Source: an uncultured Acidobacteriota bacterium (GTDB lineage: Bacteria > Acidobacteriota > UBA6911). From it: DNA of 64,000 nucleotides. A program made the position numbers and the translations under genes. Numbering within the stretch: the stretch's first letter is position 1; each line of letters starts with the position of its first letter. The notes under the pieces were generated by a model. The model was not told the DNA's origin, searched no databases, and saw only the letters and a program-made list of their open reading frames with translations. Location of the stretch: positions 365,824-429,823 of the forward strand of contig CAWHCF010000049.1 in assembly GCA_963827655.1 (NCBI GenBank). Reading direction: 5' to 3'. Of the stretch, positions 3,367 through 28,124 are shown piece after piece.

Positions 3367-3753
3367 TCGAACTTTGCGCCGATGCCGATTCTGCCAGGCT
3401 GGAACTGCAAAATGCGAGGGCATTCCTGCAGCGCTAAGGTCCCAGCCTCGCTGGTGAGGGCGCAGTCCGTTCTACCAGCTTCTAAGATATACAAGGTCCG
3501 CCGGCCGAGGGGGCCGGAGTTGTCTGACAATGATCGTAAAAGTGGTTGATCTAGCGGCTGGGCGCTCAAGGCAGGTACTGATCCCGACATCGCGGGTCGT
3601 GACATCGTCAACAGGGCTGATTTCCTGGACCGCCGTCGAAATCAACCATCGATCAGCTACGTCGCAACTTTACCCTGCGACACTCCAGTGGAGCGATGGT
3701 TTACGATGTGGCTACCGCCTGACGCCTACACCATGCTGCCCGGAACGTGGTTT

Positions 3754-4152
3754 CTAAATAGCGATCTTGAGCGCTATTTCACTGTAGAGCGTTTCTGGAA
3801 CCTTGACGCGACGCTTTCCAGCGCTTCGGCCTGCGGTCAACTTGACGACACCGTACCCCTCGAGGAGATGTAGATCCTCCTGAACGTTCTTTAGGTTCCG
3901 GTTCAGCTTCTTTGCGAGCTGGTAGATCGAGCTCGGGCGCTCGGTTCGGATCGCTCGGAGGAGGGCCAGGCGATTTGGCGTGAGGAGGTTGCGGGCTGCT
4001 TCGATGCTGGCGAAGTAAACGCCTTCTCGACGTCGAACTCGGCGGCCCGCATCCAGCGCTTTATACGCCTCTCGGAATTCTTTCATCGCCTTTTCCACAG
4101 GTTTGATCCTTATCGTTAAGGTCTTGGCCATTTTCTCTCGCCTACGATCCAT
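3754..4152 (-). CDS. Putative DNA-binding protein (HVO_A0114 / COG4190-like wHTH), antitoxin-like partner
   Basis: 132-aa ORF: KTLTIRIKPVEKAMKEFREAYKALDAG…LTPNRLALLRAIRTERPSSIYQLAKKLNRNLKNVQEDLHLLEGYGVV. This is the winged-HTH-like pattern typical of the small regulators that pair with DUF6516-like genes. Confidence 0.5.
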   Translation of the reverse strand: MDRRREKMAKTLTIRIKPVEKAMKEFREAYKALDAGRRVRRREGVYFASIEAARNLLTPNRLALLRAIRTERPSSIYQLAKKLNRNLKNVQEDLHLLEGYGVVKLTAGRSAGKRRVKVPETLYSEIALKIAI

Positions 4153-4436
4153 CTTACATCCGACGCAAAGTCCGCAAGGAGTCTGTCGACATCCACGAAC
4201 ACATAAGGCTCTTCGATCCCTTCGATGTGGCGATGGTGCCCTTTGGGCCGATGGTTGTCGTACAGTATCGCAGGGACAGTCTCGCCGCGCCGGATGAACG
4301 CCAACCGGTACCGCACCCCCGACGTGTTCTGGGACGTTGCGGGAACCTTCCAGAGCACCAGTTCCACGATGTTGCCCGCCTCATCTATGACCTTCTCGCG
4401 AAAGATCAGTGATGCACGCGCCATCGCAGCTTCCAA
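4116..4436 (-). CDS. Small toxin-like protein (DUF6516-like), upstream member of a two-gene module
   Basis: 106-aa ORF containing the His-rich motif AILYDNHRPKGHHRHIEG. Overlaps the downstream gene by ~37 nt in operon-like fashion. The family name is recalled from memory, not searched. Confidence 0.5.
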   Translation of the reverse strand: MEAAMARASLIFREKVIDEAGNIVELVLWKVPATSQNTSGVRYRLAFIRRGETVPAILYDNHRPKGHHRHIEGIEEPYVFVDVDRLLADFASDVRWIVGERKWPRP

Positions 4437-5052
4437 TATATGGCATTACGTGCCATGTATCAAGCCAAACATATCAACCCGGCGAGGCCTGGAAAGAGAG
4501 GGGCGTTCCGGGATGGACTCGGCCAGGTATTCATCCGTCGCGAATGCGGAAATCCTGCGCAGAACAGCGTACATGCTCGATACGCGGTTAAGAAAGGCGG
4601 AGGAAGATCAGAGATGGAAACTTTCTCCCGGTTAGACCAATTACCGCTGGGAAATCTAGGTCCTGCGTAAGGTGGTTCGAATTCTCAGCGATGGCTCCCA
4701 ACAATACTCTGGTCGGCAGCAGAGGCGTCAACCAGGAACGAGCACGACGTTGTAACCGAGAGAGCGCAGAAGCGCACACTTCGTCGCGATGAGACATGTC
4801 CGAAAGAAAGGTCAAAGTCATGAACCACCCGAAAACCTCAAACAAGCACTGTTGCTGACTCAGTGGGCTCCAACCGAGAAAAATGCGTGAGGCTTCGGCC
4901 GAGAAACTTGGATCTTCGTTCTGCGCATGCTCTGTGGTCGATTACCCGAACGAATGAAAACAGCCCGCCCTAGTCTGTCTGACCACTGCGAGCATGCTCG
5001 ATTCCTGGCAGGCTGTTGGCCTGAGATTTCTTCAAATACAAAGACCCTTCGG

Positions 5053-12950: not shown

Positions 12951-13623
12951 GTTCTCTCTGCAACCGCATTCACCAGAGGGAGCGGTCGCAAGAGAGTTCA
13001 AGCAGCCTCTGGCACACTTTTGAACTATTAGGTTTGGTCGCCAGATGAAGGGGAAGCAGCGGCCGGTACGTGGGTTTGCCCCGCGTCGTTTAACCTGTAG
13101 TTCCTCCGGATTTCCGCGGCACACGAGCACGGTAGCTCCGTCATCGTCGTTGCCGGCCGAAACCACCAACTAAGTCTTCCTCGTAAGCTTCTCATCCGAC
13201 GGTCTTCAAGCGACTCGAGAAGCTTGATCTGCCGGTTTTGTTTTTACGGCATCGCTCCCTCTAGGGTAGAGCGATCACCTGAAATGCGGTTTTTCAACCG
13301 ATTCAGGTCTCTAGCGCTTTTCCAGCACAAAGTAAACAGCTAGGCTCGGCTAGTAACCACAACTGTGGCTAGAAGCCTGGGCGAAACTTCCAGGATCGCC
13401 CACGATACCTGTGTGCCCGGATGTTTCCAGGGCACGCCGGCAGTTGAGTTGCCCGTGCTTCGACGGTAGAGGTGTGCCTCGCGGAGTTGCGAGCGAGACA
13501 CCTGGCAAAGGCCGTGCTGTGCGACAAGCGACTGCCGTCCAGTTTCGCGGTGCTCGAGGTGCGCCCTCTTGGTTTCTACTCCAGGCTGCTAGGGCAGTCT
13601 TCCTAAGAAGGGGGAAACTAACA

Positions 13624-14900
13624 ATGAAGCTTCTGAAAATCTCTGTGTCGTTGGTTTTTATGATCGTGTTGTTCTGGCCAATGATCTGAATTCCGTCACG
13701 GGAGACGATTCCGCCAGAGAAGCTCCCACTACTGACTTGAACGTCCTTACCGACGATATTTTCAACGGGTTCGGCGACAAGGGCCGTCCTGTGGACGAAT
13801 GCTCGAATCCGCCGGTGGCGAACCGCTCGTTCGAAGATAACAAGTTCATATTCGACGAGCGCGAGACTCCGGAGGACGGGCTGGGTCCGGTCTATAACGA
13901 TCTCGGCTGCGGCTCCTGCCATCAGAACCCGGAGAGCGGCGGCATCAGCCAGATCAACGAACTGCGGGCCGGACATGTGTCTAAGCGGCAACTTCGTTGA
14001 TCCTCCAGGTGGTTCGCTGATTCAACTGCGGGCGCTCGCCGCCCCCATACAGGAGCGTCTGGACGACGCCCCGCTCGAAAACATCAGGACCTTTCGAACG
14101 ACTCTCAACGTCATCGGCGACGGCTTCATCGAGGCCATCGCCAACAGTAAAATCGAAGAGATTCAGGATCGACCAGCCGTCAGGCTTCCAGGGCACCATC
14201 ATCAGGGTTCCGGTGGTCGAAGACCGCGGTACGCTTCGCGTGGGCCGCTTCGGCTGGAAGAACCAGCATGCCAGTCTGGTGTCGTTCTCCGGTGATGCAT
14301 ATTTCAACGAAATGGGCATCACCAATCCGTTTGACGGGAATGGCGGAAGGAGAGAGAACACCTCTCTGGGCGACTCGGTCGCAGCATTCGACCGAGTAGC
14401 AGACCCCGAGGACGATGGCGAGGATGTCGAAGCCTTCGCCAATTTCATGAGAGCCACCAGCGCTCCCGGCCGCGGGCCGATCACACTCCGCGGTTCGTCG
14501 CGGTGAGGATCTGTTTGAGGAAGTATCCTGCTCTCAATGTCACACTCCGACGATGACTACCGCAGAACCCGGCACCCTTATCAACGGCGGCCAGTTCAGA
14601 GTGCCGTCAGAGCTGGGCAACAAGATCATCCACCCGTTCAGCGATTTCCTGCTGCACGACATCGGGACCGGTGACGGGATCGTCCAGAACGGCGGTCAGG
14701 CCACCCGGAACATGGTGCGAACGCCGCCGCTTTGGGGTGTGCGCACTCGCCCGATGCTGATGCACGACGGGCAGTCGTTCACCTTCAACGAGGCGATTCA
14801 GCGCCACGCGGGTGTGGGCGGCACAATTTCAAGGAACTCCTTTAACGCCCTGTCCTCCTCGCAAAAGGCGGATCTTATTGCGTTCCTGAAGTCGCTGTGA
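13624..14900 (+). pseudogene. DUF1111 / di-heme cytochrome-c peroxidase-like (thiol oxidoreductase-like) secreted protein, broken by ~4 frameshifts
   Basis: Five consecutive plus-strand pieces. 13624-13689: signal peptide MKLLKISVSLVFMIVLF. 13737-14000: CGSCHQNPESGG heme motif. 13975-14295, then 14213-14506: GRFGWKNQHASL. 14553-14900: DFLLHDIGTGDG…TPPLWG…MHDGQSFTFNEAIQRHAG…ADLIAFLKSL. Frames run 1->0->1->2->0. Confidence 0.7.
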
Positions 14901-14954
14901 AGTCACCGGCCTCAGGGTCAGGTGGAGAATATGGACAGAGGCTCGCCGCTGAGT

Positions 14955-15000
14955 TTTTGGGCGAGCCTCTCGTCTTATCTAAAGCCACCACGAAGACACG
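14955..15000. repeat. REP-like extragenic repeat (CCACCACGAAGACACGAAGACAC)
   Basis: Located 3' of the DUF1111 gene; same family as 10682-10740. Confidence 0.55.
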
Positions 15001-15086
15001 AAGACACAATTCATGAAGTAGCCAGGTCATGTATATGATGTCAGAACTACCAAACAAACTCTTTAATGTAGTCTGTTCTTGCCGGG

Positions 15087-15878
15087 GTGTGCATCCTTTC
15101 GCTCAGTTGCTCCAAGCCGCCGGAGACAAGCAAGGTGGAGCCACCGCCCCGAGCTGAGTCAAGATCAACTCCAGCGCCGGTCACGCCCAGGGGGATGCTC
15201 AACCCTCCGCCGCCCGAACCTGAGGAAGTCAACAGGGCGGTTAGACGCGTGTTCAAGGATGCCGTGATCATTGATACCAGGAGCAGCCCCTATTTCATGG
15301 CAGGCGACTTCAACGGGGACCTTACACAGGACATCGCTGTAGTGGTGAAGCCCACCGTGGCCCGGCTGCCGGAGATCAATGACGAACTGGCCAACTGGAT
15401 ACTGGTGGACCTGAAGAACTCGTATCAGTCCAGGCCTCACGCTGGAATGGTGAGGCTGCCGCCAAGAGTTCGCGTGAACGACGGAGACATTCTGTTGGCA
15501 GTCATTCACGGGTTTGGATTCAATGGCTGGAGGGACGATCAGGCAACCCAGACCTACGTGCTCAAGAATGCCGCCGGTGCCGGGATGAGGACCGAGGCGC
15601 GCCAGCAGGTGGTCAGGCCCGACACCCAGGACAAGCTGCCACGCATCCGGGGTGACGTGATCGCGCAGAGCATGGAGGGGCAGGCCGGCTTCCTCTATTA
15701 CAACGGGGCCAGGTACGCCTGGTACGATCCGCGCACTTACAAGGCGGACGCGCTGGCCGGGCGGCCCACGGCAGGACACACGAGACGATGCGGTAGCGGG
15801 CAAGGCACTGAGGGTCGTGCGGTTTTCGGTGTGCGTCGGGCAAAACATTCAAGCTTTGCGGGCGGCGACGTGTGGTAA
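15087..15878 (+). CDS. Hypothetical protein with an FG-GAP-like motif (possible lipoprotein)
   Basis: 263-aa ORF with GTG start; contains FMAGDFNGDLTQDIAVVVKP. The C-terminal tail is Arg-rich, so the true stop may be earlier. No clear RBS. Confidence 0.4.
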   Translation: MCILSLSCSKPPETSKVEPPPRAESRSTPAPVTPRGMLNPPPPEPEEVNRAVRRVFKDAVIIDTRSSPYFMAGDFNGDLTQDIAVVVKPTVARLPEINDELANWILVDLKNSYQSRPHAGMVRLPPRVRVNDGDILLAVIHGFGFNGWRDDQATQTYVLKNAAGAGMRTEARQQVVRPDTQDKLPRIRGDVIAQSMEGQAGFLYYNGARYAWYDPRTYKADALAGRPTAGHTRRCGSGQGTEGRAVFGVRRAKHSSFAGGDVW

Positions 15879-16100
15879 GCGGTCCGGAGAGTGCGCGACC
15901 GGCGATGTTGATGTCATCAGCCGGCCACGCGCTCGGTTGCTGCTCTATGGGTCGAGGTGGTGCGCCCCGTCAGCGCTCGACCGGCGGGACCCAGCGGAGA
16001 AGTTTCTCTCCAGGGGCTGGGTCTCTGCTGGCTGAGGATTCTCCAGAAGGGTTCCGGTACTCTTCGCACCGGCACACATCCCGAATCAACGGATCGCCGT

Positions 16101-16418
16101 CTCAGGGCAGGGCAGAACCGAACCGTGCGCCCGAACTGAGGGTTCCGGCTACGACATTACCCGCAGCGTCCTGAGCGCCCTGATGCCAGAACTGATTGCC
16201 GATGACGCCCAGATGTTCGAGGATAGTACACTCGGGAGATTCCCTGCCGCCGGTGAGGCGTAGATTACATTGATTGCGCCGGCATTCGTGAATCCCGCGA
16301 CGTCTTCTTCCGCGACGCCGATGGCGAGGTCTGCAGCACCGTCACCGTTAAAGTCTCCGGTGGTGAGGGCCGACCCGAAGCGGTCGTTCTCCTCAGCCTC
16401 ATCTAAGATCGCAGAACT
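16101..16418 (-). pseudogene. FG-GAP/VCBS repeat gene remnant (no start, internal frameshift)
   Basis: Minus-strand translation ILDEAEENDRFGSALTTGDFNGDGAADLAIGVAEEDVAGFTNAGAINVIYAS… Then, in another frame, …GNQFWHQGAQDAAGNVVAGTLSSGARFGSALP*. All three frames carry stops just upstream at ~16419-16425. Confidence 0.45.
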
Positions 16419-16867
16419 TCACACTGGGCGAAATCAGTCATCGATCATGGACCAAACTGCTGCGGCTCGCAGGCTGCTCGCAACTCGCACGGTCGCATCC
16501 GACGATCCGAGCCTGGAGCATGCCGAAGGACATGCTGCCTGATCCAGTCCGGCCGAAGCTGGCCATGGCGCGTCGGATGAAGCTGAAGATACGCCATGGT
16601 CGTGAACGTGTCTGGAAAATCGTAGAGACACGGGATCTTTTGGCGTAGAATCTGCGCGAACAAGGGGCCTGGCCGCTCAGATCACGCGCGGATTGTCCGT
16701 CGTTCGCAGAACGCGACATAATCCTGAACGTGGAAGCAGAGGCAGTCACGGCCTGGGCTTAGATGCCAAAGTGCCGCTTGTTTTTTCTATCCGCTCCCAC
16801 GCGGAGTCTTTGCTGAGGAACGTGGTGCCGGGGAACCCGGAGGACCTGCTGGAAAAGGAGTATGCCC

Positions 16868-19800
16868 ATGAGCGATGACGCCGACGGCGTCATGAACCGC
16901 GGCGCCGGTAGACCGCCGACCGACGAAGCCGAGGTGCGGGCAGCCGTCGAGCGAGCGCATGCGCTCCTCGGCGGCGCGGCCGGCCGTCGACGCCGACGAC
17001 GTCGAGGCGCGCCTTACTCGCATCGGCGAGATGATCCGCCTGGCCAGGCGCCTGGAGCGGCCCGGCGGGCAGGACCAGGTGGCACGAGCGCTCGTCGAAA
17101 ACGCACGGGCAGCCGCGATGGATCTGGCGCAGCGTCTCGACCTCGACCAATTCTCGGAACGCGCGAGGGATGGAACGGCCTCGATCGATGACTTCGCCGG
17201 GCTACGGCGGCGCATCGACCACACCATACGCGTGTCCAGACACCTCGAGTATTTCGGTGAGCGAACTCACGCACGGACACTGTTGGCCAGCGCGCGGGTC
17301 GCTGCCATCAATCTCGCTGTTGACATCCTTCGCGGCGCCGGGAGCACGCCAGGCGAGACCTTGGCCCTGGCTAAGCTCCTCGACCGCCTTGACGAGTTCA
17401 ACTTCGCGTGGAGGATTCTCGACAAGGCCCGCGAGCATCGTGACTTCGGCAGAGAGCCCGGCGAGCGGATCCGGATCGTCCAGAAGCGGGCACTCTACAC
17501 ATACAAGGATGTCACCCAGCCTCTCGGCAAGCGGCTCGACGAGGCGCTGACATTTCTTGAGAACGAGGCAGAGCTGAAGACAACGACAGATCAGGAGACG
17601 CTCGGCCTGGCGGGGGCTATCCACAAGCGGAAATGGGAGCTCACCAAGAACGACCGCCACCTGAACGACTCGTACGCCTATTACCATAAGGGATACGCCC
17701 AGAAGCCGTGGAAGGATCAGGGGTATACGAGCATCAACGCCGCCTACCTCCTGGACTTGCTCGCCCAGGCGCATCGAGCCCTGCCGGAGCAGGCCGAGGC
17801 ACACCGTCATCGGGCAGACGAGATCAGGGCGGAGATCATCTCCGTCGTCCCCGAGATGCCGAAGCAGCCCGGTCAGGAGTGGCTGGAGGACATGTGGTTC
17901 TTCTACAGCACGGTCGGCGAGGCGTACTTCGGCCGTGGCGATTTCGACAAGGCTCACCTGTGGCTGGTGACCAAGCCGGAGCTGCGCGGTGTGCGCCCGC
18001 CGGACTGGGAGTTCGAGACGACGGCGCGACAGCTTGCCGAATTGGTGCGGATCCGAAATCCCGACGTCGACTTCGCGTCGACGCCGGCATGGATGGCCTT
18101 CAGGCAGTTCCTCTCTGAAAGCCCGCTCGGCGGGGGAGGCGACGTGAGCAGCGAGGCTGTGGGGCGGCTCGCCGACGGCAAGGCAGGCCTGGCCCTCTCA
18201 GGCGGCGGTTTTCGCGCTTCTCTCTTTCACATCGGCGTCCTCGCTCGACTCGCCGAGCTGGACGTGCTCCGCCGCGTCGAGGTCCTGTCGTGCGTCTCAG
18301 GAGGTTCCATCGTCGGCGCCCACTACTACCTGGAGGTCAGAAAGCTCCTCAGTGAGAAGCCCGACCATCAGATTGAAAAGAAGGACTACATCGAGATTGT
18401 CCAGCGTCTCGAGAAGGAGTTCCTCACCGGTGTGCAGACCAACATCCGCATGAGCGTGGTCACCGAGGCTAAGGCAGTCCGGCGGATGCTCCACCGGAGC
18501 TATTCGCGGACGGTGCGCCTGGGAGAGCTCTACGAGGAGCAGCTCTACTCGCGCGTCGCCCCCATCGAGGGCGAGAAGGTGGATGCGGACAACGGGGTGC
18601 GCGAGCGTTACATGCATGAGCTGGCGATCCACCCCAAGCTCGCGAAGGGTGGTCAATGGACCGACTTTGCGCCAAGGAATCACAACTGGCGGCGCGAGGC
18701 CAAAGCCCCGATCCTTATTCTAAACGCCGCCGCCCTGAATACCGGTCACAACTGGCAGTTCACGGCCAGCTACATGGGCGAGGCGCCCGCCACCATTCAC
18801 CGTGAGATCGACAGCGTCTCGCGGCTGCGTCGCAAGTACTACACAGATGCCCCTCACAGCGCGGCCGCTCCACAGAAGGTGCGGCTCGGCGCCGCGGTGG
18901 CCGCGTCATCCTGTGTGCCCGGTTTGTTCGAGCCCTTGGTGTTCGCGGACATGTACGAGACGCGAGGCAGCGGGCAGCCCATCGACGTCACGCTCGTCGA
19001 CGGCGGCGTCTGCGACAATCAGGGCGTGGCCGGTCTCATCGAACAGGATTGCACCGTCCTGCTCGTCAGTGACGGGAGCGGCCAGATAGACGCGCTGGAC
19101 GCGCCAAGCGCCAGGGCGCTGATGGTGGCCTTGCGCACGAACGGGATCTTGCAGTCGCGTGTCCGCGGCACCCAGTACCGCGAGCTGGATGCGCGGCGCG
19201 GCGCCCTGATGCTGAACGGGTTGATGTTCGTCCATCTTAAGAAGGACCTCGACAACCAACCGGTAGACTGGAAGGACTGCCCTCCGGAGTTGAGGCTCCG
19301 CGCTCCCGATGATCGTGAGGTGCTGACCAAGTACCGAATCTCGAAGGACGTACAGCGGCGGCTGGCCGCCATCCGCACCGATCTCGATTCGTTTTCCGAT
19401 CAGGAGGCCTACGCCCTGATGCTGAGCGGCTATCGGATGACCGAGTATGAGTACGCGAACAGATTCGCTCCCGTGGCCGCGGCCCCCGAGCCGCAGGCCT
19501 GGCGCTTTCGTGCGATCGAGCATGCGATGACGCGGCCGGGTGAAGCTCAGGACTACCTCAACACGATCCTCGACGCCGGGAGCAGCCTCGCCTTCAAGGT
19601 CTGGAAGCTCGATGCGCGGCTCCGGAGCCGCGCGCAGCGCCTGAAGCAGCTGGTAGTCGCGGCTGGCGCGGTCGCCGGGCTCGTCACCTTGCTCGTGCTG
19701 GCCGCTCTGCTGCAGGCCGTGTGGTCACTGTTGGGGGGTGGCGCCTCGGTGTTGCCGGCCGCCGCGCTGACGGGGCTCGGTGCGATCGTCACCGTGGTGG

Positions 19801-20030
19801 CGGTGGTGGTCGTCCTCGGGTCGCTGTTCGCCCTGCTGTTCTATGCGGTGAGGCTGCGAGGGAAGGGCGACGCCGTGGCTCATTTCGCAGTCGGCGCGTT
19901 GCTGCTGTTCGTCGGCGGTCCGGTGGCGCGACACCACATGAGGAAGTACGAGCCAGCGTACCTGGAGCGGGGAAGCATCCGGAAGCTGCCCGGTCCGTCC
20001 AGGGCCGCGTTTAGAACTGCCGCGCGCTGA
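16868..20030 (+). CDS. Patatin-like phospholipase with N-terminal DUF4071-type TPR-like domain and C-terminal 4-helix membrane anchor (putative effector); probable frameshift near 16975 between an SD-equipped ATG at 16868 and the annotated 16959 start
   Basis: Patatin motifs: GGGFRAS (oxyanion loop), CVSGGSIVGAHY (GxSxG nucleophile), DGGVCDNQGV (catalytic Asp). aa ~150-400 align with the TPR region of the 441-aa gene opposite (GAIHKRKWE vs GRIYKDQWE; SYAYYHKGYAQKPWKDQGYTSINAAYL vs AIETYLQGFEADWRDAYPGINAVTL). The C-terminus has four hydrophobic helices (LVVAAGAVAGLVTLLVLAALL…). An aaggag SD sits 7 nt before the ATG at 16868, in frame 2; the annotated ATG 16959 is in frame 0 and has no SD. Confidence 0.8.
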
Positions 20031-20217
20031 TCTCGATTCCCCGGCGCGGATGCCGTCCGGTCGCGGGTCCCTTCGAGCGTCTTCGGGTATAGCAGGAGTC
20101 AACAATGAGTCACCCGGTCAAGCACAACATCCCGTACGCGGAGAGCGACAAGGGAGCGCTACGCCCGATTGAGTTAGCGTCTCGAAGCGCACCTTGAATT
20201 GCTTGGCTGCTCTTAGA

Positions 20218-20240
20218 ACTTCGTGAGGCCTCACGGGGCG
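20218..20240. terminator. Perfect palindrome CGTGAGGCCTCACG (with G run) between convergent genes; candidate bidirectional terminator
   Basis: actt-cgtgaggcctcacg-gggcg lies midway between the patatin stop (20030) and the minus-strand gene stop (20278). Confidence 0.4.
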
Positions 20241-20277
20241 CTTAAATTCGGAGTCGAGTTCAGAAACATATAAAGAA

Positions 20278-21603
20278 TTATTTCGAGTGCTCTAGTAGCT
20301 TCCTCTCAATTTCATCCGCCCAACGAACCTCGTCGTTTCGCTGTTTGCGCGCTTCTCGGATAAGACCCAAGTTTCTCGCCGTGGTTGCTGGTTCCCAGGA
20401 TTCCCGTATTAAGGTCAGCGCAACAGTTAATGAGCTAGTCGCTTGTTGTTGATCTTTGGCTAAGACCGCCAACTCAACCAGAGTGGCATAATCCCAGTAA
20501 TCAGGCTTACCCGTCGCGATACGACGCTCAACCGCGTACGCAACAACCGGGACCAGCCTTTGCTGGCGCGTATCCGGCGGTTCCCTCAGCTCCATCAATG
20601 TAACGGCATTGATTCCAGGGTAAGCGTCTCGCCAGTCAGCCTCGAATCCTTGGAGATAGGTTTCTATGGCCTTTTCCAGCAGGCTCTTTGCGACTGATAT
20701 GTCCTTTCTTTTTGATGCTTCCTCCCATTGATCTTTGTAGATACGCCCAAGAATGCTGCAACTTTCGCTGCTGGGCCCTCGCTTTTCAATCAACTCCTTT
20801 AAAGTCTCTTCGGCTTGGCGTCTCTCGCCGAGGCGATTGAGCGCGAGGGCGAGCTGTTCTTGCACCATGACGGTTGACGCCAAGGGTCGTGACATTTTGT
20901 TTACTAGATCGGTCATTTCCTTCCAGGCCTGAACAGCGCGATAGGAAAGAAGGAGATCAATAACCACTCCAGTGTCACAATGTTCAATGTTGCCAAGCTC
21001 GGCTTCTATTGCGCGCAGCGCTTCAATGTTTTTACCTTTCCGCGCCGCCGCAAGTTGAGCTTTCCTCTCTGGCGAGTATGCTACTACTTCTCGGAAGACG
21101 TCAGTTTTCGTGTGGGCAATACCAGGGTAATTTTCCACCAGCTCATAGATCGAACTGCCAGGAGCCGACTCTCGAACTTCTTTCAATTGAAAAGCCAGCG
21201 CAGCCTTAGCACCCTGAACGTCTTTCAGAGATCCGTTGGAAGTTAGCGCGTAGGTTAAGGTCCGGAGCGTACCGTGGTCAAGGGTCACGCCGCTCGCCTC
21301 GGAAAGGATGACCACCGTAGAGTTCGGACGCACTGCATCCCGCGCACCCAGCTCATAGATCGCGTTGGCATTGGCTGTCGTCAGGTCCACGACCGCGTAC
21401 TCGCAAAGAATAGCTTGCTCAACCATAGGCTTGTGAATCATTCCCCCGATCACCGGCTCATCGGGCCGAATCGCCTCGAGCCCCGCTTCTTTTATTGCAG
21501 GCGCCACCAGGTCTCGATAAATCCCTTCAAAATCGATCGTGAACCCCTTTCCGTCGGCTTTCTGGCCATAGGGCATAAAAACAAAGCAAAGTGGTCGACT
21601 CAT
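20278..21603 (-). CDS. NDT-like (nucleoside 2-deoxyribosyltransferase/TIR-like Rossmann) domain + DUF4071-type TPR protein (ASK1 N-terminal-like)
   Basis: 441-aa intact ORF. N-terminus MSRPLCFVFMPYGQK…AILCEYAVVDLTTANANAIYELGARDAVRP is an NDT-like signature with Glu in an E-[LA]-G context. C-terminal ~250 aa are TPR-like and homologous to the N-terminus of the patatin protein. ~50% GC versus ~63% in flanking genes. Confidence 0.8.
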   Translation of the reverse strand: MSRPLCFVFMPYGQKADGKGFTIDFEGIYRDLVAPAIKEAGLEAIRPDEPVIGGMIHKPMVEQAILCEYAVVDLTTANANAIYELGARDAVRPNSTVVILSEASGVTLDHGTLRTLTYALTSNGSLKDVQGAKAALAFQLKEVRESAPGSSIYELVENYPGIAHTKTDVFREVVAYSPERKAQLAAARKGKNIEALRAIEAELGNIEHCDTGVVIDLLLSYRAVQAWKEMTDLVNKMSRPLASTVMVQEQLALALNRLGERRQAEETLKELIEKRGPSSESCSILGRIYKDQWEEASKRKDISVAKSLLEKAIETYLQGFEADWRDAYPGINAVTLMELREPPDTRQQRLVPVVAYAVERRIATGKPDYWDYATLVELAVLAKDQQQATSSLTVALTLIRESWEPATTARNLGLIREARKQRNDEVRWADEIERKLLEHSK

Positions 21604-21693
21604 AAAATCAGGACCCGTCTCCCTGCACCTCGGCTGAAAAACACCGACGGCTATGAAAACCCGTGCTCTCTCGAGCCACCTGACAATTCGTCT

Positions 21694-22963
21694 TTAAAGC
21701 TCCCAATTCAACACGCGCCGACGGTAAGGATAAGCGATGCGATGCAGAATACCTAACAACTCAACGTCATCGGAGTAAAAGAAGACCTGCTGATCGCGGA
21801 ACATGAACGGAGGGCGACGGCGTGGCGATCGTGCAACCAAATAGAGTTTTGCATCAGCTCCCCGAGCGATACCAGCTTCTATGCAAGTGTTCAAGTTGTC
21901 TTCCGAGATGTCTGAGGCCACCATCGATGCCTTCGCGATTCGCTCAATAATGGTCTGCTGGATCTGGCCCTCGCGAATATCATCGCCCACAACACACGGA
22001 GTTCCCGTGACGCGCTGAAGAATCTGTTTGATGACCTGATTCCGCACTCGGTTTTGATCGTCGAAATTGGTGGAGAGAAAAGTATAGTGGGGCCGTGGAG
22101 GTCGTTTCCATTCATCAGAGATCCACTCAATGCCTTTGCGCAAGCTATTCGCAACTGTGCTGTTGAAACCTCCGTCTGAAGGCGCGACCCGTATTAGACG
22201 TTGCATCGAGCCCTCGGTTACCTGAACACTCGGTTCCGCGATAACAAGGCAAGGCAGGCCGAGCGCTCCAGCAATCTCAATTTCCTGTAGCATGTACTTT
22301 GAAGTCTCACCGTTACCACGATCTGGAAGGATGGCGACCAGTCCCCCACAGCTCGAAATGATGCTCTGAATCCGAGTTGCCTCGACTCCTGGCCAATCCT
22401 TCGAGTCACCAACAAGCCTGAAATCAGCCTGGGCGAGAACTTCTTTGCATATACCGTCGGCCAGGGACGACTCACTTTCTCTCCACGTTCGACTGACGTA
22501 GACGTCACGGGTTTTTTCGAAATCCAGATCCACTTCGTCGTAATACAGATCCGCGAGAAACTGACCATAGGTGACCACTTCTCTCTTATCTTGGACAAGG
22601 TCAACCCACTTGGTCGTTTGCAGGAACCCGGGCACTTGGCATTCGTCAATGCGCACTGGAATAACGCGAAAATCTTTGAGTTGCGTCCGCTGGCCAATCG
22701 CCGCTTCATACTCCTCTCTGACCCAACCCGAATTGATAGAAGCGCTCGATAATACGATGATCATGGAACGGCATTGAGTGACGGATTCCGCGAGTCGTGT
22801 CGCGATGGTAGCGCCGGCGGGTAGATGGCGGGCGTCGTACCAGATCGGAATTCCTGATACCTCACTCAGCCACTTATGCAGACCGTCAACAAATGACTTG
22901 TCGGCATGCGCGTGGCTAAGAAAGGCACAGAACTTGCGCTTGTTTAATGGCAGTTCCCGCCAA
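21694..22963 (-). CDS. TIR-domain protein with two C-terminal NDT-like domains; N-terminal 66 codons of the TIR domain lie upstream of the annotated ATG (22764) with no in-frame canonical start (probable frameshift near 22950, or CTG start)
   Basis: Manual translation upstream of M22764 in the same frame gives a canonical TIR N-half: …LPLNKRKFCAFLSHAHADKSFVDGLHKWLSEVSGIPIWYDARHLPAGATIATRLAESVTQCRSMIIVLSSASINSGWVREEYEAA. A perfect SD aaggagg (22970-22976) and a TTG (22963-22961) sit in a different frame that stops after 15 codons. Downstream domains: DVYVSRTW…CLVIAEP and HYTFLSTNF…ASMVASDISEDNLNTCIEAGIARGADAKLYLV; the second matches the partner gene's NDT-like motif. Confidence 0.75.
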
Positions 22964-23095
22964 AATGTCCCTCCTTGAACTCAAGTATGTCCAGAAAGTC
23001 TACTGTCGATGCCGCAAATTCGAGCTCGAAGATGCCGAATATAGCAGTACTGTTCTTGATGTGCGATCAGTATTTCCGTGGGCTAATTTCCTTGG

Positions 23096-26638: not shown

Positions 26639-28063
26639 ATGCCGGAGTTTCATGCCGAACCTTATGTCTACCTGGCTGGACTGACTCACAAAGCGGCGCT
26701 CATTGCGTGGGGAGGTTTCTACTTCCGAGTCCGAGATCAAAAATCGGATGGAAGTTGGAAACTCGTAGACGACCGTGACCTGGAACATGTTCACCCGCCC
26801 CGGCGCGAAAGCATCGGGGCGAGGTCGGAGCCGTATGGGCCGGCTAAGGTCGAAGTTTTTGATGCCTCCGGAACGCTGGTTTCATCGGCTGAAACCGCCA
26901 CGACCAACCACGTCTGGGTTCCAGGACTCGCACCCGACACGGAATACACCTATCGCGTCATTGTGAATGGCGAAGTTTGGGGAGACGGCGAGCGCCGCGA
27001 CTGGGTCACTGGTTCGGACGGTCAAGGTCTGGTCCGCACCGGCCGGAGGTACGAGAATCGTTTCCGAACTCATCCCCATCCGGAGGAATCCGCCTCGCTG
27101 ACGTTCGCAGTGCTGGGCGACTTCGGAACCGGCGTTCGCAAATCGTCCAAGCCGGAGAAGAGACAACGCGAGGTGGCACGGGCGCTCGACCGGGCCATCG
27201 ATGAAAGAGGAGTGCGCCTGATCATCACAACCGGTGACAACATCTATGCCGGCAAAACCTTTCTCGGGTTGCCCGTGGGGGCCACGGGCGACGAAGACGA
27301 TGACTGGTTTTTCACTTTCTATCAGCCCTACCGATACATCATCAATCGCATTCCGGTTTACCCTTCCGTGGGCAACCACGACAGCAACGAATCGGAAGCG
27401 AGCGACGACCGCCAGCAACTGATCGACAATTTCTATCTTGCGGAGCGTTTTTCGGGCGAAGAAGCAGCCGGTCGAGCGTCCATAAACCCCGGCCTCTTTT
27501 ACCGCTTCCACTATGGCGCCGAAATCGAGTTCATCTGCATAGACACGTCGCGGCAGTCGAGCCTGTTCTCAAAACGGTTTTTCGAGCATCCGAATCACAT
27601 CGCGTTCGTGGAAGCATCATTTCCCGCATCGGGCGCCGCGGCCAGCGACTCGCCGGCCTGGCGCATCCCTTTTTCACACCACCCTCCATATTGTGCGGGC
27701 CCTCGACATTTCAATTCGCGCTCGATGATCGAGAAGCTCGTGCCGTTGTTTGAACGCGCGGGAGTCCGGGCTGCCTTCAGCGGACACGAGCACAATTTTC
27801 AGTATTCGCGCGCGGGCAAGATTCACTACTTCGTCACGGGCGCCGGGGGCAAGGTCCGGCTCGAGACGCCTTCAGAGTTCAGCAAGGCGCAAACGTCCGC
27901 ATGGGCGAGCGCCGGCCATTTCTTACTCGTGGAGGTGGACCGACGGCAAATGATCGTGAGTCCGATCGGAGAAATTGGTTCAGACGACACTCTGTCAAAC
28001 CTGCGCATCGTGAGCCCGGACAATCAGGCCATAACGACGCCAATCATCATTCCCCGGGCATGA
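26639..28063 (+). CDS. Purple acid phosphatase-like metallophosphoesterase (calcineurin-like) with N-terminal FN3-like domain
   Basis: Motifs GDFG, GDNIY, GNHD, GHEHNFQY (metallophosphatase signature). 474 aa. Confidence 0.85.
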   Translation: MPEFHAEPYVYLAGLTHKAALIAWGGFYFRVRDQKSDGSWKLVDDRDLEHVHPPRRESIGARSEPYGPAKVEVFDASGTLVSSAETATTNHVWVPGLAPDTEYTYRVIVNGEVWGDGERRDWVTGSDGQGLVRTGRRYENRFRTHPHPEESASLTFAVLGDFGTGVRKSSKPEKRQREVARALDRAIDERGVRLIITTGDNIYAGKTFLGLPVGATGDEDDDWFFTFYQPYRYIINRIPVYPSVGNHDSNESEASDDRQQLIDNFYLAERFSGEEAAGRASINPGLFYRFHYGAEIEFICIDTSRQSSLFSKRFFEHPNHIAFVEASFPASGAAASDSPAWRIPFSHHPPYCAGPRHFNSRSMIEKLVPLFERAGVRAAFSGHEHNFQYSRAGKIHYFVTGAGGKVRLETPSEFSKAQTSAWASAGHFLLVEVDRRQMIVSPIGEIGSDDTLSNLRIVSPDNQAITTPIIIPRA

Positions 28064-28124
28064 CGCCGAGCGCACGGGCTCGAGCGTTTTCGAGGGCAGG
28101 GGGGATGATTTCGAGACAGCTCAT

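Follow-up and report, generated by a model that had tools for sequence, protein, structure and literature searches.

Do three adjacent genes of an uncultured Acidobacteriota bacterium form a defence system and, if they do, is that system of a kind already described? The genes, which we call A, B and C, are the large open reading frames occupying 16.9-23.0 kb of a 64,000-nucleotide stretch of contig CAWHCF010000049.1 (this whole stretch is the window of what follows), and an initial annotation made from the letters alone had read them as a candidate conflict system of a new kind. Our analysis makes it rather probable that the locus belongs to the TIR/TPR-S family and brings about abortive infection in the manner of Thoeris; it would act through a signal derived from nicotinamide adenine dinucleotide (NAD+) and carry two effectors with one type of sensor. 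It is a variant of the described TIR/TPR-S systems and no new category; its closest relatives are type VIII Thoeris (TIR plus ThsI) and the BcTir/Tpr system. The uncharacterised parts are a TPR-S-gated, membrane-anchored patatin (the product of A) and a three-domain TIR protein (the product of C).

Domain architecture of the three proteins

Pfam searches recovered in the three adjacent reading frames the domains that had been named for them, these being TIR_2 in C, MAP3K_TRAF_bd and TPR-S in B, and TPR-S and Patatin in A. The matches of B to MAP3K_TRAF_bd/DUF4071 (4.8e-50) and TPR-S (1.6e-27), and the fact that ASK1 was the only PDB protein matched by its sequence (3e-7), agree with the ASK1-like DUF4071 TPR region that the earlier description gave this gene, joined there to a nucleoside-2-deoxyribosyltransferase-like (NDT-like) domain. 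Unlike animal ASK1 (MAP3K5), B has no kinase. In the AlphaFold2 model of B (predicted local distance difference test, pLDDT, 82) an alpha/beta domain at the N-terminus is followed by a helical repeat at the C-terminus. All homologues have N80, and the conservation of E84 among them is at least 90%.

In A, residues 148-265 matched TPR-S (1.8e-15) and residues 411-690 matched Patatin (1.5e-13), an arrangement of two Pfam domains that more than 4000 homologues share. Its patatin domain has the glycine-rich oxyanion loop (GGGFR, 415-419), the nucleophile serine elbow (CVSGG, with S447; a cysteine replaces the first glycine of GxSxG in the A family) and the catalytic aspartate (D681-GG). Because these motif residues are invariant across 20 homologues, we regard the Ser/Asp dyad as intact, and the claim that the catalytic motifs are complete stands. 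The four-helix membrane anchor also proposed for A can be kept in a looser form, as a Kyte-Doolittle scan found three hydrophobic stretches between residues 895 and 991, a region weakly conserved among homologues, from which 3-4 transmembrane helices are predicted. The A family includes fusions of the type TIR-TPR-S-patatin (P0305) and MinD/nSTAND1-TPR-S-patatin.

A and B have in common the TPR-S motif E-[ST]-x-x-[IL]-x-G-x-I-[YH]-K-x-x-W-E ... [PT]-[GS]-I-N-A, found as well in the ThsI orthologue considered below, so that the patatin and its partner do share a TPR region, as had been noticed. With this motif in common, A and B would be expected to respond to one class of signal. To say, as the initial annotation did, that the patatin carries no known sensor is misleading, since TPR-S is itself the predicted sensor.

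Gene C matched TIR_2 (2.1e-25) and, weakly, the models of ThsB (Pfam ThsB_TIR, 4.6e-7; PADLOC ThsB, 1e-6), and PADLOC (2023) gave generic TIR matches only. The TIR domain retains a glutamate at the catalytic W+4 position (WVREE), whose conservation across 36 homologues is at least 90%, and 518 relatives of about 422 amino acids were found. The AlphaFold2 model of the intact protein (P0121; pLDDT 88, predicted template modelling score 0.88) encoded by a sister contig (L081, ENA ERZ25039541 contig_8391), which is about 99% identical to and syntenic with the window, contains three alpha/beta domains. The TIR assignment made earlier is thus confirmed; that of two NDT-like domains following it has limited support, because domains 2 and 3 have no sequence match in Pfam or the PDB (profiles against PDB sequences gave chance-level hits only) and hhalign comparisons of the C domains with the N-terminal domain of B were weak (best E value 0.005, for domain 3). 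Domain 3 is the only one in C to carry the motif N-x-N-x-x-x-E-x-G, whose N, E and G are invariant and whose pattern matches both B (N78-A-N80-A-I-Y-E84-L-G) and N82/E86 of BcTpr. It is plausible that C is a TIR domain followed by two NDT-like domains, the motif backing domain 3 and the modelled fold alone domain 2. One PADLOC model, Aga_TIR-PNTD1-PNTD2, had the right length for C, but its alignment covered the TIR domain only and it was dropped; a literature search for PNTD gave nothing.

Relationship to described TIR/TPR-S systems

Burroughs & Aravind 2020 is said to be the source of the Pfam family TPR-S (PF20308) and reportedly presented TPR-S as a common sensor on varied effectors, tied to TIR, DRHyd and SLOG domains and to the TPR of ASK1; the Aravind-laboratory eLife papers that we examined do not mention TPR-S. 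In two later preprints, the prediction that the TPR has a role in TIR-mediated, NAD+-derived signalling, with 'Tpr' as the core of the assembly, is credited to that same 2020 work (bioRxiv 10.1101/2023.05.26.542521; bioRxiv 10.64898/2025.12.03.692087). The different activation logic that had been suggested for the locus is consequently not supported, TPR-S being already predicted to sense TIR-derived signals.

Type VIII Thoeris is an anti-phage system composed of a TIR protein (ThsB) and ThsI, annotated as 'CMP hydrolase and TPR', whose signal is canonical cyclic adenosine diphosphate ribose (cADPR) and whose TPR is the presumed sensor; its TIR alone yields cADPR upon infection, and external cADPR is toxic to system-bearing cells (bioRxiv 10.64898/2025.12.03.692087). 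Our locus resembles it in the co-oriented TIR gene adjoining a gene for a MilB/CMP-hydrolase-like and TPR protein, and in the catalytic N..E motif of ThsI, which is kept in B. Plasmid pA7J1 encodes a TRAFs-binding protein beside a TIR of 134 amino acids, the latter 76% identical to the validated type VIII TIR, and B could be aligned over its full length with this ThsI orthologue (25% identity; BLASTP, E value 7e-34). The subfamily to which B belongs is distinct from that ThsI and highly conserved, and the locus further differs from type VIII in its second TPR-S effector, the patatin. Rare Thoeris operons with two effectors answering one signal have been described (bioRxiv 10.64898/2025.12.03.692087).

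The second relative, BcTir/Tpr of B. cereus, guards E. coli against T-phages; BcTpr, made of a MilB-like N-terminal domain and a TPR, depletes NAD+, produces a cADPR isomer, binds cADPR with a Kd of 1.9 uM and depends on N82 and E86, while BcTir is catalytically dead and regulatory, with a lysine replacing the catalytic glutamate (bioRxiv 10.1101/2023.05.26.542521). Both systems pair a TIR protein with a Tpr protein that has an N-terminal MilB-like glycosidase, a C-terminal TPR and the same catalytic N and E, B and BcTpr being likened here through the published residues (N82/E86 against N80/E84). They differ in that C keeps its catalytic glutamate and in that the operon tested in B. cereus has no patatin. 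A survey of 78 operons listed Tpr alone in 29, Tir-Tpr in 28 and Patatin-Tpr in 4 (bioRxiv 10.1101/2023.05.26.542521). The combination cannot accordingly be called undescribed, as it first was: TIR with a MilB-like/TPR protein has been shown to be anti-phage in both BcTir/Tpr and type VIII Thoeris, and 'Patatin-Tpr' was listed in 2023.

Transferring the logic of BcTir/Tpr to the window, B would itself cleave NAD+ as a cyclase, producing the messenger and depleting NAD+, C would regulate or sense by way of a complex with B, and A would be the downstream effector. We consider this unlikely, even if it is encouraged by the activity of the Tpr protein in that system and by B being the invariant core of neighbourhoods whose partners vary: C has glutamate at the position where BcTir has lysine, and the type VIII TIR makes cADPR alone, added cADPR being toxic to cells that carry that system. 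Also in its favour, in 9 of the 15 loci that combine B and a patatin no TIR gene is detectable within 6 kb, which would imply a trigger other than a linked TIR there, although the hidden Markov model for TIR used in that census may overlook divergent or distant TIR genes.

More widely, the locus shares with the predicted TPR-S systems built on NAD+-derived signals the presence of TPR-S in both the core protein (B) and an effector (A), the linkage to TIR and DRHyd domains, and interchangeable partners (patatin, trypsin, alpha/beta-hydrolase, SLATT and TIR-STAND). Unlike type I Thoeris (ThsA, SIR2-SLOG, plus ThsB), it has no SIR2-SLOG or Macro effector: searched with Pfam, neither the three genes nor their flanking genes contain a SIR2, SLOG or Macro domain. 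A membrane-destroying patatin gated by a small-molecule signal is found in cyclic-oligonucleotide-based anti-phage signalling systems (CBASS; CapV/CapE) and in the candidate 'SLOG-patatin' Thoeris. The patatin of the window differs from these in that it would sense through its predicted TPR-S and not through SLOG or by direct binding of cyclic GMP-AMP, and in that it has a transmembrane anchor of its own and no CD-NTase/SMODS cyclase among its neighbours; neither in the window nor in the sister contig is there a CD-NTase, SAVED, SLOG or SIR2 gene in the neighbourhood.

A proposed mechanism for the Thoeris-like reading

Under the Thoeris-like reading, the events after infection may be pictured as follows. 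The TIR domain of C, with its putative catalytic glutamate, would cleave NAD+ and generate a messenger of the cyclic-ADPR type, while the two additional Rossmann-like domains may detect the phage or act on the product. By homology with ThsI and BcTpr, this messenger would bind the TPR-S region of B and free the MilB-like N-glycosidase (N80/E84), so that B would deplete NAD+ or nucleotides and may produce more messenger. The same or amplified messenger would then bind the TPR-S region of A and switch on the Ser447/Asp681 patatin phospholipase, with destruction of the inner membrane and death of the cell before phage release as the expected outcome.

A bolder idea, which we regard as improbable and offer as a conjecture, is that the C family, its domain 3 having an intact MilB-type active site, is a two-step synthase. 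The product of the TIR domain would be turned into a messenger that is also derived from NAD+ but new, such as ADPR trimmed or with an exchanged base, and that the highly conserved TPR-S subfamily of B would read specifically. Were this true, B would be an amplifier, the TPR-S-patatin, TPR-S-trypsin and TPR-S-hydrolase proteins would be interchangeable executioners, and both the Thoeris type and its messenger would be new.

Conservation of the gene neighbourhoods

The neighbourhoods of B were compared in 80 species-level genomes, and a census of the genes lying within 6 kb covered 75 loci, the window included; for C, 80 metagenome loci were compared, many of them on short contigs. A TPR-S-patatin gene of the A type adjoins B in about 20 of the 80 genomes, and in at least 9 of these roughly 20 cases the two genes are co-directional with gaps of 16-185 nucleotides; others are convergent as in the window. 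The 6-kb census found a TIR gene in 26 loci, a patatin gene in 15 and both in 6. Counted over the closest gene on either side of B (69 genes upstream, 71 downstream), the Pfam families were TPR-S (26), Patatin (14), TIR_2 (13), Abhydrolase_6 (6), Trypsin_2 (4) and DUF4231/SLATT (4). Other neighbours include fusions of TPR-S with a trypsin-like peptidase or an alpha/beta-hydrolase, TIR-nSTAND1, TIR-NACHT-TPR, a short TIR, DUF4062-nSTAND1-FGE-sulfatase and a SLATT/DUF4231 protein.

The complete trio of TIR, B and A recurs in L004, L005, L024, L039 and L040, and the order C then B is kept in L081, L165 (where the pair is 77% and 64% identical to that of the window) and L170 (where B is 97% identical). 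Seen from C, the commonest neighbour cluster is that of the B/TPR-S genes (14 of the 80 loci, one of them a SLATT-DRHyd-TPR-S fusion), C is followed by an A-type patatin in 2, and proteins with TIR-NACHT or TIR-WD40 architecture lie near it in 7; many loci, often on short contigs, have no such neighbour. The three modules are therefore truly linked but shuffled, none being obligatory for the others. That homologues of these genes would never co-occur elsewhere had been named at the outset as a finding that would speak against a system; they do co-occur, though each is often found alone. The reading of the locus as a conflict system holds up well: the domains and catalytic residues support it, and so do the fusion proteins and a linkage of the genes that recurs in many phyla.

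The B family counts more than 6700 matches at 55-62% identity in many phyla, and it spans Acidobacteriota, Nitrospirota, Desulfobacterota, Bacteroidota, Proteobacteria and a metagenome-assembled genome of the archaeal Nitrososphaeraceae (L025). Such identity across phyla is unusually high for a putative defence gene, and suggests frequent horizontal transfer under strong constraint. It could also be taken, together with the housekeeping-type genes that flank the locus and the half of the B loci that have no recognisable conflict partner, as a sign of a physiological NAD+/stress-signalling module governing membrane lipid turnover. We find this very improbable, given that the homologous two-gene systems (BcTir/Tpr and type VIII Thoeris) are anti-phage, that B is accompanied by effectors typical of conflict systems (patatin, trypsin, SLATT and TIR-STAND/NACHT), and that the genes have a patchy distribution across phyla, an archaeon included, and a foreign composition.

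Three observations made in these neighbourhoods merit mention of their own. RyR-domain proteins lie near C homologues in 10 of the 80 loci, the RyR domain being joined to TrkA_N or an AAA ATPase (L082 1743-3625, L088 9411-11324, L091 1950-4739); the animal ryanodine receptors are linked to cADPR signalling, and the pairing of TIR and RyR in bacteria perhaps deserves its own study. Directly upstream of a C-family gene, L084 (275-3559) encodes a protein of 1094 amino acids composed of SLATT_1, a B-like DRHyd domain and TPR-S, in effect a ThsH-type and a ThsI-type effector in a single polypeptide. On the Rhizobium plasmid pCC511_4 (L162, 12160-25446), the surroundings of a B homologue (48% identity) include three TIR-domain genes, a DUF4231 gene of the SLATT family, an HhH-GPD glycosylase and a 7-cyano-7-deazaguanine synthase; TIR and TPR-S genes are the centre of this dense plasmid island.

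Integrity of the reading frames

The limits first given for the locus, 16868-22980, are those of intact ancestral genes and not of the genes that the window encodes, where both C and A are frameshifted; position 22980 is merely the first codon past a stop (GTT). The sister contig has the same trio with products of 422 (C), 441 (B) and 1051 (A, starting MSDDADG) amino acids. Three-way alignment of the start region of C (window 22951-22976, L081 9990-10015, L170 360-385) revealed in the window a single-nucleotide insertion, a T at 22952 in codon 5, which is in neither relative: the site reads GGGAACTGCC in the window, and GGGAAC-GCC and GGGAAT-GCC in the relatives. Because this extra T shifts the frame, the TTG at 22963-22961, placed behind a strong Shine-Dalgarno sequence (AAGGAGG), reaches a stop after 15 codons. 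In the frame of the TIR domain there is no ATG, GTG or TTG upstream of the methionine at 22764, itself inside the TIR domain, and the sole in-frame start-like codon upstream is the CTG at 22953-22951. As written, C of the window is untranslatable from a canonical start. In A, a net gain of 7 nucleotides relative to L081 at 16976-16991 throws the ancestral ATG at 16868 out of frame, and B is free of indels.

These lesions, together with the gene fragments at 13-16.8 kb (a piece of a di-haem oxidoreductase and, in L081, an FG-GAP piece), may be seen as marks of a decaying, non-functional remnant in the genome of the window. We judge that unlikely: from the ATG at 16959 A retains all its domains, and no stop interrupts the remainder of C or any part of B and A, all of which match intact relatives at 97-99% identity. 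The extra T is probably an assembly artefact, because the relatives have C and T where the window has 'CT' (AACTG against AACG and AATG). Two alleles merged during assembly or polishing would be the simplest explanation, and many small indels separate the window from L081, where aligned blocks of 3-5 kb have between 3 and 48 gap openings each. A real inactivating mutation at 22952 is the less probable alternative.

Evidence against a single Thoeris-like system

Several results weigh against the Thoeris-like reading. If the window sequence is correct, the trigger gene C is not expressed, having no canonical in-frame start. In the 6-kb census, B was without TIR or patatin in 40 of the 75 loci and without TIR, patatin or any other TPR-S gene in 37; most of the C loci are without B or A, though many of their contigs are short; and A homologues at 62-63% identity stand alone (L169, L171). 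C is a 422-amino-acid protein with TIR_2 and two extra domains, not a ThsB-type TIR of about 130 amino acids, and motifs of the C-type TIR are absent from the portion of Table S1 of the Thoeris census that was examined. PADLOC (2023) returned no model matching A or B, and no CBASS hit for A. The published accounts of the B-type protein are moreover in conflict, one presenting an effector that cADPR from the TIR protein activates and the other an enzyme that makes its own cADPR isomer.

Base composition adds to these points. A has 65.4% G+C (82% at third codon positions, GC3), as in the host and the flanking genes, whereas B and C have 52.7% and 52.4% (GC3 about 55%), a split which indicates that the three genes did not arrive together; on composition, C-B has the look of a cassette of two genes gained recently by horizontal transfer, next to an A whose composition is native. 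One may then see two units at the locus, C-B as a self-sufficient type VIII-like cassette and A as an independent TPR-S-patatin defence gene next door, which might answer other TIR proteins of the genome or be self-contained. A being convergent with B, and not co-transcribed with it, would fit such an arrangement, as would C followed by B without A in L165 and in the short contig L170, and the solitary A-type genes already mentioned. The adjacency of B and A in 14-20 other genomes, often operonic, speaks for their belonging together, and so do the TPR-S motif in both proteins and the recurrence of the trio in five other loci. Two separate units strike us as somewhat unlikely, though less so than the other alternatives, and we keep to the Thoeris-like reading with the moderate confidence stated at the beginning.

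Layout of the locus and its surroundings

The features of the locus are collected in Table 1. C and B are co-oriented, with C ending 90 nucleotides upstream of B, and A is convergent to B across a spacer of 247 nucleotides.

Table 1. Positions in the window of the three genes, their domains and the sites discussed in the text
Feature	Coordinates	Strand	Description and basis
Gene A	16959..20030	+	1023 amino acids from ATG 16959; TPR-S, then patatin phospholipase, then C-terminal membrane anchor (open reading frame list, Pfam)
A, ancestral 5' end (ATG 16868)	16868..16991	+	Off the frame of the main reading frame in the window (comparison with sister contig L081)
A, TPR-S core (residues 148-265), predicted ligand sensor	17400..17753	+	Pfam; carries motif ETLGLAGAIHKRKWE...YTSINA
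A, patatin domain (residues 411-690)	18189..19028	+	Pfam; GGGFR 415-419, S447 at 18297-18299, D681 at 18999-19001
A, hydrophobic C-terminal region (residues 895-991)	19641..19931	+	3-4 predicted transmembrane helices (Kyte-Doolittle scan)
A/B convergent intergenic region	20031..20277		Includes 123-nucleotide stretch 20139-20261, missing in L081
Gene B	20278..21603	-	441 amino acids, ThsI/BcTpr-like; MilB/NDT-like N-glycosidase domain and ASK1-type TPR (TPR-S)
B, N-terminal Rossmannoid (DRHyd/MilB-like) domain (residues 1-146)	21166..21603	-	N78-A-N80-A-I-Y-E84 at 21352-21372
B, TPR-S / MAP3K_TRAF_bd helical domain (residues 178-441)	20281..21072	-	
Gene C reading frame, stop to stop	21694..22980	-	TIR and two Rossmann-like domains; intact sister protein P0121 has 422 amino acids
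C, TIR domain	22588..22923	-	Putative catalytic Glu (WVREE, W+4) at 22711-22713
C, domain 2, Rossmann-like alpha/beta	22108..22515	-	AlphaFold2 model; conserved R..W..E, RxGD, PDRGxGxTS..E
C, domain 3, Rossmann-like	21718..22089	-	AlphaFold2 model; D-I-S-x-x-N-L-N-T-C-I-E-A-G at 21877-21897
C, translation-start region	22951..22976	-	Shine-Dalgarno AAGGAGG 22970-22976, TTG 22961-22963, extra T 22952, CTG 22951-22953

The flanking genes are of housekeeping type (a GFO/IDH/MocA oxidoreductase, a glycolipid-binding protein, a phosphoesterase, a rhodanese and a phosphodiesterase). Neither a tRNA nor an integrase signal was found at the locus, a megablast search against plasmids gave no match to it, and NCBIfam returned nothing informative. 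Inspection of the locus for a convincing promoter or terminator likewise found none, the spacer between A and B being without an outstanding terminator-like site. The 123-nucleotide stretch of this spacer occurs only once in the window, and the spacer as a whole has a strong predicted fold (-84 kcal/mol over 248 nucleotides, computed without a shuffle control).

Beside A, the region 13000-16800 contains short open reading frames only, among them a 115-amino-acid C-terminal piece (for example, 14553-14900) of a di-haem oxidoreductase of about 500 amino acids; the matching region of L081, which holds the FG-GAP fragment, is 95.8% identical with 48 gap openings. This looks like a decaying, variable region. 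On the other side, L081 has about 1 kb (3748-4797) in excess of the window at 28092-28118, with a ParD-antitoxin gene and a partner of 109 amino acids, so that this cassette, some 5 kb from the locus, is a case of strain-level presence and absence of a toxin-antitoxin pair. A Metallophos (calcineurin-like) gene at 26639-28063, with weak, sub-threshold matches to PhoD_N and to the N-terminal domain of purple acid phosphatases, was considered as a component because calcineurin figures among the listed Tpr partners (bioRxiv 10.1101/2023.05.26.542521); we rejected it, as it has these matches and lies 3.7 kb off, behind housekeeping-type genes.

Implications for the Thoeris/TPR-S family

If the locus is functional, the Thoeris/TPR-S family would gain a membrane-lytic, TPR-S-gated patatin as well as a TIR generator with three domains, and the locus would be a case of one messenger firing two effectors by way of a common sensor fold. 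Phospholipase activity is easily assayed, so that A could be used to identify the ligand of TPR-S, which bears on the dispute as to whether ThsI and BcTpr are effectors or makers of the signal. Should the C family prove to be a two-step synthase, activation of the phospholipase would provide a tractable read-out for the ligand of the TPR-S fold kept in ASK1. More remotely, such a ligand is relevant to ASK1 of animals and to the question of whether its homologous TPR, too, binds a molecule derived from nucleotides.

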